This document shows, in pieces, positions 7,871-11,774 of a stretch of 11,866 nt of DNA (the first letter of the stretch is position 1; every line of letters begins with the position of its first letter). The stretch lies in assembly GCA_049976845.1 (NCBI GenBank), contig JBMFHL010000020.1, positions 1 through 11,866 on the forward strand, written 5' to 3'. The notes below the pieces were generated by a model. That model had not been told where the DNA came from and made no database searches. It was given only the letters and a program-made list of their open reading frames with translations. A program made the translations under genes and the position numbers. This DNA comes from Candidatus Micrarchaeia archaeon (lineage in GTDB: Archaea; Micrarchaeota; Micrarchaeia; Micrarchaeales; CABMGC01).

Positions 7871-9139
7871 TCACTCTCTCTTTACTACATCTAGTATTAC
7901 TCCTGCAGCCACTGTCTGACCCATGTCCCTTATTGCAAACCTGCCCAGCTGTGGGAACTCGCTGTATTTCTCAGCAACTATGGGCTTTGTGGGCTTTATC
8001 TTCACTATTGCTACATCGCCATTCTTTATGAAATCAGGATTCTTCTGAAGCGTCTGGCCTGTCTTTGGATCCTTCTTCTCCATAATCTCTGTTATTGTAG
8101 CAGCAACTTGCATTGTGTGGATATGGAATACAGGAGTATAGCCTGCTGCTATTGCTGTAGGGTGGTTTATTACTACTATTTGAGCGGTAAATTCCTGCAC
8201 GACTGTAGGTGGATTGCTTGCTGGCCCAACAACATCACCCCTCTTTATGTCTTTCTTGTCTACGCCTTTTATGTTGAAACCTATGTTGTCTCCAGGCTCA
8301 GCCTTTTGAAGCTGCTGGTGATGCATTTCTATGCTTTTTACATCTGTCTTCACGCCACTTGGCATTATTATTATCATGTCTCCAGGCTTCATTACACCTG
8401 TTTCTACCCTGCCTACTGGCACTGTACCAAATCCTGAGATGCTGTATACATCTTGGATTGGCAGTCTAAGAGGCTTATCTGTTGGTTTTACTGGCACCTT
8501 CAAAGTATCGAGAACTTCCAAGAGGGTAGGTCCACTATACCACTGCATTTTGTCTGACTTTGCACTTATGTTATCACCTGCGAGTGCCGAATAAGGGATC
8601 ACAGGTATTGCAGACGTATCGTAGCCTACTGTCTTGAGCAGGTTTAGTATTGAAAGTTTGACTTCTTCGAACTTTGCCTTGTCATAGTTTGCAGCATCCA
8701 TTTTGTTTATGCCCACTATGAGCTGGTTTATACCGAGAACTTTGGCAAGGAATGCATGCTCCCTTGTTTGTGATTGTATGCCATCTGGACAAGAGATTAC
8801 TAGCACTGCGGCATCTGCCTGGCTTGCGCCAGTTATCATGTTCTTTACGAAGTCCCTGTGACCAGGTGCATCTATTATTGTGAAGTAGTACTTAGGAGTC
8901 TGGAACTCTTTGTGCGCGATATCTATAGTTATTCCACGCTCACGCTCTTCCTTGAGCTGATCCATTACAAAAGCAAACTCGAAAGTAGGCTTGTTGTATT
9001 TTGCAGCCTCATCCCTCATCTTCTTCATGTCCTGCTCACTTATTGACTTTGTCTCATAGAGCAGCCTTCCTACTGTTGTTGACTTTCCGTGGTCTATGTG
9101 TCCTATAAAAATTAAATTCATGTGTGGTTTTTCTGCCAT
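7871..9139 (-). CDS. tuf: Translation elongation factor EF-1alpha
   Basis: [26 protein letters not shown] and [12 protein letters not shown] at 9139 (MAEKPH) with AGGTG upstream is preferred over the 9148 start. Confidence 0.98.
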
Positions 9140-9225
9140 TTCATACACCTTGTTTTTTTAAGCGTTAATTGGATTGCGACGAGAAAAAATGCCCCCGAAG
9201 CATCACTAATATATGATGGTAACAG

Positions 9226-9233: not shown

Positions 9234-9443
9234 CTTTATGGAAAAACAGGCGTTGTTTATTTAGTCTGACTTTATCAACATTTTAAATATTTTATCAGCA
9301 AAATTCGGCTTTTCAACAAAGCTGGAAAGATGGTTGTTTATTAAGTTGCAATAATGAGTAAAAGCATCCTTCGCTTTTGCAGCTTGTTTTTCGTATTGCT
9401 ATCGTGCATGGCTAAAGCTAGCTTAGAATTTTTATAAAAATAA

Positions 9444-9477
9444 ATGTAGTCTTGAGGATTATTGCGAGATCCGCATT
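9444..9477 (-). other. 3' arm of the pre-16S processing stem (BHB)
   Basis: 9444-9458 ATGTAGTCTTGAGGA is the exact reverse complement of 11551-11565. RNA reads AAUGCGGAUCUC-GCAA-UAA-UCCUCAAGACUACAU. Confidence 0.85.
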
Positions 9478-9929
9478 TTGCACACATCATAAGTTAAACT
9501 TCTTATAGAAGTTTGAGGTGATCTATCCGCAGGTTCCCCTACGGATACCTTGTTATGACTTAGCCCCCCTCATAGAATACTAGTTCGAAAGCACCATAAC
9601 GATGCTGCCTCACTAGCACCCCATTTGGATGACTTGACAGGCGGTGTGTGCAAGGAGCGGGGACATATTCACCGCTCGATGGTGACAAGCGATTACTAGG
9701 GATTCCAGCTTCATGAGGGTGAGTTTCAACCCTCAATCCGGACTTTGATTGGTTTTAGGGGATTGGCTTCTCCTCTCGGAGTTGCTGCCCATTGTACCAA
9801 CCTCTGTATGCCGCGTGTAGCCCTGGAGATTTGGGGCATACTGACGTGCCGTCGCCTTCTCCTTCCTCCTTTTTAAACAAAGGCGGTCCTAACAGAGTGC
9901 TAAGTTTATCTCTAAACTTTTAGCAACTG

Positions 9930-10430
9930 TCAGTGAAGGTCTCGTTCGTTACCGGGCATTTGAATGCGCTCAATGCGAATGCTAAAACCTTTTATAAGCG
10001 TAATAAGATTCCTTGGATTTAAGATCTTGGAACCTTTCGTATGTATATTTAGATTTTCAAGCATTAGTCCTTCGCTTGGACTTATGCCCTTTATTTCCGC
10101 GTACGTGCTGCTTCCTCCTCTGGAATCGAACATGCCTGCAACAAAATTTGCAGACAACTCATTCCTGTACTTGAAAATTCTGGATTCATTTTCCCTTATC
10201 TCCCTTATCCACTTAGCCAGCTTCGAATGATAGAAATGGGCTTCATAGGTTCCTTTGTCTTCGCTTATTATTATCTTGCTGGGCTCCACACCCAACTTGA
10301 CAGCGATTTCGACAAATTTTATCTCTATCTCTTGTATTTCAGTTTTTATCCCTATGTACCCTTTCTCATCCTTGCTGAGCCAAGCTAGGCCAGACAGGTA
10401 ACAGATTTCAGGTTTTAGTTTCGCTTTCAT
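9930..10430 (-). CDS. Intron-encoded degenerate double-motif LAGLIDADG-like protein
   Basis: Motif 1 YLSGLAWLSK, motif 2 FVAGMFDSRG, 85 aa apart, with YEAHFYHSKLAKWI between them. ATG at 10430 (alternative GTG at 10439). The genomic stop lies 18-20 nt inside 16S exon 2. Confidence 0.75.
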   Translation of the reverse strand: MKAKLKPEICYLSGLAWLSKDEKGYIGIKTEIQEIEIKFVEIAVKLGVEPSKIIISEDKGTYEAHFYHSKLAKWIREIRENESRIFKYRNELSANFVAGMFDSRGGSSTYAEIKGISPSEGLMLENLNIHTKGSKILNPRNLITLIKGFSIRIERIQMPGNERDLH

Positions 10431-10449
10431 AGCAAACACTCAAAATGCT
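9950..10449 (-). mobile_element. 500-nt archaeal BHB-type rRNA intron at 16S position ~1101/1102
   Basis: Removing 500 nt restores GGUUAAGUCCGGUAACGAACGAGACC. CCGGUAA occurs at both junctions (10455-10449 and 9955-9949). The intron termini pair (GCAUUUUGAGUGU / GCAUUCAAAUGC). Confidence 0.9.
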
Positions 10450-11531
10450 TACCGGACTTAACCGGACAGTTCACACCACGAACTGACGATCGCCATGCAC
10501 CACCTCTCGGCTCATCAGGTAAGGTCATTAGCCTGACCTTCATCTTGCCGTCGCTCCAGGTAATGTTCCCGACGTTGGATTCAATTAAACCGTAGCATCC
10601 ACCCCTTGTGTGCTCCCCCGCCAATTGCTTTAAGTTTCAACCTTGCGGCCGTACTCCCCAGGCGGCAGACTTAACAGTTTCCCTACGGTACTGCGCTCAC
10701 TCGTAGTTAGCGCAACACCAGAGTCTGCATAATTTACTGCTAGGGCTACTCGGGTATCTAATCCGATTCGTTCTCCTAGCCTTCGTCACTCACCGTCGGA
10801 TATGTTCTGGTCGAGCGCCTTCGCCACCGGTAGTCCTTATAGGATTACAGGATTTAACCCCTACCCCATAAGTACTCTCGACCTCACCCACTCCCTAGCC
10901 GAAAGGTATCTCGTGCAAGCATAGGCGTTGAGCACCTATATTTCACACAAGACTGTTTCAGCAGGCTACGGACGCTTTAAGCCCAATAGTTGTGGACACC
11001 ACTTGTGCCGCGGGTATTACCGTGGCGGCTGCCACCCGTCTTACCCAGCACTTATTCGCCAAGCTTACTAAACTTGGCAAAAGATTCACCGAAGTGAATC
11101 ACTCAGACTTCCCCCATCACGCTTACGCGCATTGTGGAGTTTTCGCGCCTGCTGCACGCCGTAGCGCTAGGGCCCTTGTCTCAGTGCCCTTCTCGGGGCT
11201 CCTACTCTCATAGCCCCTACGGGTCAAAGGTATGGTGGGCCGTTACCCCGCCATCTGCCTGATCCGACGCGGTCTCATTGTAAGGCGGAAACGCTGCATT
11301 TTGCGCACCTTTAAGCTACAGCCCCTTCCAGGATCTATAGCCTATGGAGTATTAGCCTCAGTTTCCCGAGGTTATCCTCCTCCTTACAGCAGATTGACCA
11401 CGCGTTACTGAGCCGTTTGCAGCCCAACGAAGCCGTTGAGCTAACTTGCATGGCTGTCGAAATCTGATAGCAGTGCCCTCCAGCAGCATCGACTGGAGTC
11501 AATAAAGATCTTGCCGCAAAAGCAAGAAAGC

Positions 11532-11565
11532 AATGCGAGTCTCTTTGCACTCCTCAAGACTACAT
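11532..11565 (-). other. 5' arm of the pre-16S processing stem (BHB)
   Basis: RNA AUGUAGUCUUGAGGA-GUGC-AAA-GAGACUCGCAUU pairs with 9477-9444: 15-bp outer helix, central helix GUGC/GCAA (one G.A mismatch), 3-nt bulges AAA and UAA. Confidence 0.85.
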
Positions 11566-11628
11566 CCAATTGCAAAAAGCAATTTTCACCCTAAACGTAA
11601 AAGATACAAAATGCATCCCAATAAAAAG

Positions 11629-11659
11629 TATATATAATATAAGGAGATACCTTTATAAT
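11629..11659 (-). promoter_or_regulatory. Candidate rRNA promoter TATA boxes
   Basis: TTATATATA (11637-11629) and ATTATAAA (11659-11652) lie upstream of the 16S leader stem. Confidence 0.4.
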
Positions 11660-11774
11660 CCTTGCGTAGATTTTTCAAATAATGGCATGCACAGTTTTTT
11701 CTTCATTTACTCTTTTTCTACTTATTATTAGCAAAGCTTAAAAATGCAATGACATATAACTAAATTGTGATAAT

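Follow-up and report, generated by a model that had tools for sequence, protein, structure and literature searches.

AUGA stop-start closure of a circular 16S rRNA intron is ordinary among related introns of Micrarchaeia, whose stop-less reading frames end at a shared exon codon

Which RNA serves as the message for a protein gene lying within an rRNA intron (precursor, linear intron or circle) has been a question since the Desulfurococcus mobilis intron, and it arises again in the 16S rRNA gene of a Micrarchaeia archaeon. The window analyzed here is the whole of contig JBMFHL010000020.1 (11,866 bp), from a 731-kb genome that is ~90% complete and whose relatives are Micrarchaeota/Micrarchaeia metagenome-assembled genomes (MAGs). 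A 500-nt intron of bulge-helix-bulge (BHB) type interrupts its 16S gene and carries an open reading frame (ORF) with no stop codon inside the intron; on unspliced RNA the frame continues into the 3' exon, and on a circle made by joining the intron ends it stops on its own start codon. Once relatives are compared, this AUGA closure is ordinary, and it is the pattern of exon stops and the wide, 16S-linked and atypical protein family that are worth following. The features concerned are these.

9513..11499, minus strand: 16S rRNA gene, intron-interrupted (Rfam RF01959, 1339.5 bits, model positions 1-1478 over 1987 nt)
10450..11499, minus strand: 5' exon of the 16S rRNA gene
9513..9949, minus strand: 3' exon of the 16S rRNA gene
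9950..10449, minus strand: 500-nt BHB-type intron (from the sequence, an RNAalifold consensus and the RNA circle junction)
9930..10430, minus strand: ORF of 166 aa on unspliced RNA, encoding P0001, with AUG at 10430-10428 and UGA at 9932-9930 (from translation, homologs and an AlphaFold2 [AF2] model)
10427..10432, minus strand: CUAUGA, the last sense codon and UGA of the circle reading, overlapping the AUG (on the in-silico circle)

The match is to a complete archaeal 16S rRNA; it spans 1987 nt against a model of 1478 positions, and thus holds ~500 nt extra. A preliminary description of this stretch had proposed a stop-less intron ORF with three predicted products, from pre-rRNA, linear intron and circle; translation from AUG 10430 confirms the open frame, the arithmetic is right, and every coordinate and count holds. 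The ORF begins 19 nt inside the intron, meets zero stops within it, and ends in PGNERDLH at a stop 17 nt into the 3' exon. With the intron ends joined in silico, the product is instead 167 aa long and ends in IERIQMPGKHFECLL (PGKHFECLL); the UGA of the circle falls at intron position 20 and the AUG at offset 19, giving the AUGA overlap at 10430-10427. Judging from the alignment, the true start is this AUG and not the upstream GUG at 10439, since all 13 of the aligned introns share the ATG and the leader preceding it varies by non-triplet lengths (14-19, 30, 34 and 41 nt among the introns).

The circle junction predicted in the preliminary description exists in RNA. We compared positions 9700-10700 with Logan contigs from four hot-spring metatranscriptome runs, which represent four coded studies of the same year and habitat and possibly a single campaign. 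Back-joined contigs running from 10448 to 9949, a step back of 500 nt, are present in all four runs, with one contig per run at depths of 4.8-10.2, a shorter side of 49-137 nt, and seven letters that fit either side. Their source is a close relative, ~88-100% identical to the window over the compared pieces and not proven to be the same genome, and in the RNA of that relative the excised intron forms a circle. One contig that skips the 500 nt (run X2, depth 3716) was rejected as proof of splicing, as it could equally be rRNA of an intron-less relative.

To place the AUGA closure among related introns, loci were gathered from genome contigs, metagenome contigs and a genome collection, with one locus from an unpublished genome (L042) excluded. 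A script reduced 79 rows with an intron at the site to 50 unique introns of 489-562 nt, 49 of them with an intact ORF (~160-177 aa, and one of 143 aa) and one broken (L028). Twenty-one introns have a stop of their own. In 17 it precedes the 3' border by 10-60 nt; in L045 and L150-L152 an own UAA straddles the border, made up of the last two intron bases and an A. We note that in L045, L150, L151 and L152 this A is supplied alike by the exon or by the first intron base of the circle, such that precursor and circle terminate identically. The remaining 28 of the 49, the window included, have no stop of their own and read through.

The preliminary description had taken the AUGA for a termination-reinitiation device on a self-coupled circular mRNA, and the comparison does not support this proposal. 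Homologous introns keep neither a length of 3n+2 nor the overlap, phase and stop position being random among them: lengths of 3n, 3n+1 and 3n+2 occur in 25, 16 and 8 of the 49 intact introns, so that 3n+2 is the rarest, and phase switches at least nine times among the 28 read-through rows on the protein tree. The overlap, present on the in-silico circle only and unconserved among homologs, closes 7 of the 28 circles (the window, L005, L019, L065, L006, L038 and L073), which are all, and the only, phase-2 read-through members; this share does not differ from the expected 1/3 (binomial p 0.43). Ten circles stop in the leader, eight at the first post-junction codon and two at position 11, four meet a late out-of-frame stop after 6-26 extra codons, and seven are endless, with zero stops (L002, L020, L021, L082, L033, L037 and L147). 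Because the post-junction frame is fixed in all 28 (..CCN GGU A/AG, with the junction at the slash), the fate of a circle is set by leader length alone, and because the second codon starts with A in all phase-2 members, AUGA is automatic in that phase. The closest relatives of the window (L002, L003, L004, L014 and L017) have a 17-nt leader and are in phase 0, so the 19-nt leader of the window is a lineage-specific 2-nt difference. The tails that circles would encode (K, KHFECLL, KQVRGV and KQVEQR, each up to its stop) are not conserved.

The linear reading behaves differently. A single exon codon (codon +7, at +17 from the border) terminates every one of the 28 read-through ORFs, and reads UGA in 20 of them and UAA in the other 8. 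Of the 21 introns that have their own stop, 10 also have a stop at this codon, the remainder having CAA, UUA, AGA, GAA or CGA. Among intron-less 16S genes of the same order, a hand count gave a stop there in 43 of 75, or in 42 of 74 once the unpublished G086 is excluded. L043 and L097, two read-through introns whose junction is variant, were examined by eye and are outside these counts; they terminate on the same exon UGA, and a third locus examined in this way, L089, has own stops. Raw Fisher tests of exon stop against read-through, with kin treated as independent, give p of 1e-5 to 6e-6, and on the sequences at hand we regard the association as suggestive. As the circle holds no exon stop, the constancy of this stop, if real, is not explained by the circle and points to termination on exon-linked RNA.

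We therefore weigh several accounts of how the gene is expressed, and favor one, with a rough probability of 0.6, in which the protein is made from exon-linked RNA, the exon UGA is the stop that matters, and the AUGA closure is a by-product. A tRNA-splicing endonuclease would cut the intron and RtcB would ligate the 500-nt circle, these enzymes being taken from general knowledge of BHB introns (available text of PMC4496867). The gene would fill the intron since each of its ends also forms one strand of the terminal stem, the structure presenting the splice motif. The ORF would have lost, or never had, its own stop, would read through the 3' splice site, and would most likely use the exon UGA 17 nt downstream of the border; its template would be nascent pre-rRNA, or a transcript reading from the intron into the 3' exon. 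The AUGA closure would then arise from three things, namely the fixed post-junction frame, a second codon starting with A, and the 19-nt leader, which would shift the AUG by one base relative to that frame. The circle itself would be untranslated, or a secondary template with an irrelevant tail, the tail lying outside the confident fold. Nothing indicates that circle closure is selected, although the circle may be translated.

Several observations weigh against termination in the exon. None of the four RNA runs has a contig bridging exon and intron, as expected of unspliced precursor, and this negative is weak since contigs drop rare species. The exon-stop association is not established under kinship control: the tree provides four well-supported independent pairs (eight in all), in which the exon stop agrees in 2.3, opposes in 0 and shows no difference in 1.7, and the independent-pairs sign test is underpowered (p 0.125-1). 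Of the 28 read-through circles, 21 do come to a stop, and in 17 this is no later than the AUG (7 by AUGA and 10 in the leader), so that translation of the circle would usually yield a protein of normal size. Moreover, the first post-junction codon is UAA or UGA in three phase-0 groups (L003/L004/L014/L017, L041, and L068/L076/L083) and in none of the 21 own-stop introns, which could hint at some selection on the circle. The last two points would also be drawn on by an account in which the circle is the main or only mRNA, the classical proposal for the D. mobilis 23S intron, with AUGA in this lineage letting a terminating ribosome restart and few circles giving many protein copies. It further draws on the circle being the sole intron form assembled, in all four RNA runs, and it has a precedent in the D. 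mobilis circle, cited as an early translated circular RNA (circRNA) in the available text of PMC11724312. We consider it improbable even so, as 7 of 28 circles are stop-less and four run 6-26 codons further out of frame, phase is labile with phase 2 rarest (8 of 49), the exon stop that a circle does not use is present in 28 of 28, and the Shine-Dalgarno (SD)-like GAGUG is both placed in the terminal stem and a poorer match to the 16S 3' end than the GUGAU of most relatives. Its boldest form, in which circles are real mRNAs tuned by leader length, with AUGA restart in phase 2 and rolling-circle synthesis of tandem LAGLIDADG-fold repeats from the endless phase-0 members (7 of 28), is a long shot; if true, it would be without a natural precedent in archaea, whether as self-coupled or as rolling-circle translation.

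A compromise has somewhat more to offer, unlikely as we judge it: both templates could be translated, pre-rRNA giving the exon-terminated protein and the stable circle a protein with a different tail of a few residues, neither tail being functional. This accommodates a circle present in RNA together with a kept exon stop, and agrees with tails that lie outside the confidently folded part and are unconserved on circles; the difficulty is with the 7 of 28 endless circles, which, if efficiently translated, would trap ribosomes or yield concatemers. That the ORF is instead a decaying, unexpressed remnant, its open frame and closure being functionless, is scarcely credible. Protein motif 2 does lack its canonical acid, motif 1 is without a conserved acid, and two copies (L022 and L028) are frameshifted, but the ORF is intact in 49 of 50 unique introns, seven residues are conserved at >=90% in 53 sequences, the AF2 model is confident, and the class has homologs in 276 of its 401 sampled genomes. 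The two frameshifted copies are on metagenome contigs, in otherwise intact introns of 491 nt (L022) and 490 nt (L028), and may reflect decay or assembly errors.

The anatomy of the intron bears on how such a gene could fill it, and comprises the following parts.

10449..10455, minus strand: 5' half of the splice motif, with the CCGG strand of the central helix (10455-10452) and the bulge UAA (10451-10449); RNAalifold columns 18-24
9946..9955, minus strand: 3' half of the splice motif, with CCGG (9955-9952) and then unpaired UAACGA (9951-9946); RNAalifold columns 543-552 and single-sequence minimum free energy (MFE) fold
10414..10448, minus strand: 5' strand of the terminal stem, pairing with 9956-9986, with the 19-nt leader (10449-10431), the SD-like GAGUG (10441-10437) and the first ORF codons
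9956..9986, minus strand: 3' strand of the terminal stem, also coding for the last residues (..IERIQMP); RNAalifold and MFE fold

The insertion point in the 16S gene lies between GUUAAGUCCGGUA and ACGAACGAGACC, which we take to be ~1095-1102 in E. coli numbering, given a 7-nt ambiguity. The ambiguity stems from a direct repeat, CCGGUAA, at both intron borders (10455-10449 and 9955-9949), by which the exact cut is uncertain, yet the circle sequence, the 500-nt length and the ligated exons are unaffected. The ligated exon sequence (AAGUCCGGUAACGA..) is identical to that of 75 intron-less relatives, whose uninterrupted site reads AAGTCCGGTAACGA... A consensus fold built with RNAalifold from 13 homologous introns consists of a helix between the exons, a CCGG/CCGG helix of 4 bp, a 5' bulge of 3 nt, an unpaired 3' stretch of 6 nt and a long terminal intron stem. 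The central helix and the 5' bulge UAA are unchanged in 13 of 13 introns, and the 3' side has six unpaired nucleotides (UAACGA) in place of the 3-nt bulge of a canonical BHB; as predicted, the splice motif is thus a relaxed bulge-helix-bulge. The splicing endonuclease of the ARMAN type has a broad substrate range. Compensatory changes occur at no fewer than nine pairs of the terminal stem (columns 26/541, 28/539, 29/538, 35/532, 40/530, 41/529, 51/521, 66/517 and 69/514). The Rfam placement, the covarying stem and the CCGG/CCGG helix bear out the archaeal BHB-type rRNA intron first described, and a search of 9900-10500 for a group I intron or other RNA family gave no Rfam match at E<=10 except a 30-nt rRNA fragment. 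In the variant junction of L043 and L097 the intron ends in GGUU, not GGUA, and the L043 intron also has U rather than A as its first base; the bulge sequence is thus altered and the ligated exon stays the same.

Much of the leader, including the candidate SD sequence, is paired in the predicted, covarying terminal stem, as the preliminary description had supposed. This GAGUG fits the 16S 3' end (..GAUCACCUC) less well than does the GUGAU of most relatives. No TATA-like element is obvious by eye in the 19-nt leader and the conserved upstream exon, which neither proves nor excludes a promoter.

P0001 has no Pfam LAGLIDADG match at E<=1, only a sub-threshold match to Abp2, and ankyrin matches from a phmmer search of PDB were dismissed as chance, there being no real PDB sequence match. 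It has 11 close homologs and 97 representative ones at E<=1e-3. The AF2 model, from a 53-sequence alignment (pLDDT 93.2, pTM 0.88), contains two alpha-beta-beta-alpha-beta-beta-alpha domains in a single chain, and confidence falls at the C-terminus, with block means of 79 for residues 151-160 and 50 for residues 161-166, and values below 50 at residues 164-166; the exon- or circle-encoded tail therefore probably lies outside the fold. Foldseek found 39 matches in PDB at E<=1e-3, with I-DmoI first (2vs7_G, E 1.3e-5, TM 0.62), then I-Tsp061I, PI-PfuI and I-SceI. A profile searched against PDB sequences found weak matches only, to PI-PfuI (E 0.013) and E-DreI (E 0.19). On this modeled structure, P0001 is an I-DmoI-like protein of LAGLIDADG fold, and we stop short of calling it a proven homing endonuclease. 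The two LAGLIDADG motif regions are as follows.

~10400-10359, minus strand: motif 1 region, residues 11-24 of P0001
~10145-10116, minus strand: motif 2 region, residues 96-105 of P0001

Residues Y11, G14, A98, G99, F101, D102 and G105 are conserved in at least 90% of the 53 sequences. Motif 2 has the form [YF]xAGxFDxxG, in which D102, at position 6, is retained in 150 of 154 family members, and position 8 (R104) is C, R, S, N, A, V, T or K across the 154 sequences. At the catalytic place motif 1 has S, R, N or G, and only 53 of the 154 sequences have E22 nearby. In alignments to PI-PfuI and E-DreI, the catalytic E/D of those enzymes faces a non-acidic residue in P0001. With the catalytic acids of both motifs missing, nuclease activity appears doubtful, unless an unusual active site is used.

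The family matches 276 of 401 sampled genomes of the class and 147 of 186 high-quality genomes, mostly in one copy; this tally includes two unpublished genomes (G298 and G086). Of 248 genomes in the same order, the intron pattern is matched in 43 and the site is uninterrupted in 75. Among 126 loci, the gene is inside the 16S gene in 54 and behind it on the same strand in 33, and 39 have no 16S gene in the stretch; in none of the 87 loci with a 16S gene is it upstream or on the opposite strand. The genes behind 16S are at distances of 126-2441 nt, and two of the 33 (L023 and L061) are actually intronic. Context switches at least 14 times on the protein tree. We had considered that copies behind 16S might be expressed from ligated leader-trailer RNA, and dropped this idea given a T-run after the processing stem and ORFs that start 138-781 nt past 16S (L101, L105, L011, L092 and L113); separate transcription is more likely. 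One MAG (G237) has both an intron-bearing 16S gene (L041) and an intron-less one with a homolog directly behind it (L094); the two proteins group together on the tree, and the MAG may hold two rRNA loci or be a mixed bin.

The protein-coding neighbors on the contig are ordinary chromosomal genes, coding for FtsZ, deoxyhypusine synthase, VKOR, a sulfatase, a DUF929 protein, a CBS-HTH protein, SAM synthetase and aEF-1alpha, and there is no 23S gene on the contig. The aEF-1alpha gene (7871-9148, minus strand) comes next after the 16S gene in the same orientation, an order shared by 15 others of the 126 loci searched (the window included), of which 14 are intron-bearing. The 16S flanks (~11506-11700 and ~9340-9490, minus strand) pair as the expected long processing stem, which contains AGUCUUGAGGA/UCCUCAAGACU, present in five of six loci folded, and is followed by a T-rich run.

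For the long-standing question of how proteins of rRNA introns are expressed, this family offers a comparative handle, in that its stop-less members always sit on an exon that supplies a stop (28 of 28) and the closure of their circles is haphazard. Should the exon-stop pattern survive a better kinship-controlled test, it would argue that translation of such genes precedes splicing or does without it, and that the circles are not messages but by-products. The family is also found more widely than would be expected of a selfish endonuclease, is devoid of the canonical catalytic acid, and occurs in association with 16S, either inside or directly behind it; a domesticated role is possible.

Like the D. 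mobilis 23S intron that encodes I-DmoI, the window intron is of BHB type, lies in an rRNA gene and is excised as a stable circle, and it codes for a monomeric two-domain LAGLIDADG protein whose best fold match is I-DmoI itself. The D. mobilis circle encodes a 194-aa endonuclease, is discussed as a template, and is cited as an early translated circRNA in the available text of PMC11724312. The two differ in gene (16S here and not 23S) and in host (DPANN and not a crenarchaeon), and P0001 is shorter (166 aa vs 194 aa), ~16% identical to I-DmoI in the fold alignment, and without a Pfam LAGLIDADG match or an acid at motif position 8. The preliminary description also held that I-DmoI gains its stop by circularization; a full-text literature search found no paper stating so.

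In Thermoproteales and Desulfurococcales, 13 loci of the 16S gene, 1093 among them, hold introns, and LAGLIDADG ORFs are carried by many of these introns (Jay and Inskeep 2015, PMC4496867, available text). As described there, they resemble the window family in their BHB motif, their conserved 16S sites, and the one- or two-motif LAGLIDADG proteins that many encode, and locus 1093 is in the same conserved 16S stretch as the window insertion, near it without the identity of the site being established. Unlike those introns, which in the same text are often >700 nt, the window family is of 489-562 nt and belongs to another phylum. Closer in host, the 16S genes of ARMAN-2 and 'Ca. Mancarchaeum acidiphilum' Mia14 possess introns (Golyshina et al. 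2017, PMC5498576), in the same phylum and gene as the window intron; the available text of that paper gives no anatomy, ORF, circle or comparison, and the limited literature collection searched yielded no paper describing how Micrarchaeota 16S introns are built or expressed.

Translated circRNAs and rolling-circle translation of infinite ORFs are described in eukaryotes and in a viroid-like satellite RNA (available text of PMC11724312), and the intron ORF is like these in crossing the junction, with an infinite ORF predicted in 7 of 28 relatives. Unlike them, the window circle, known here from sequence and RNA contigs, has a stop, and its host is archaeal, with SD-type or leaderless initiation. 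In prokaryotic operons, AUGA stop-start overlaps serve in termination-reinitiation coupling. The same four-base overlap of stop and start appears on the window circle, although there the two 'cistrons' are one and the same ORF, and the overlap is unconserved, being shared by only 7 of the 28 read-through introns.

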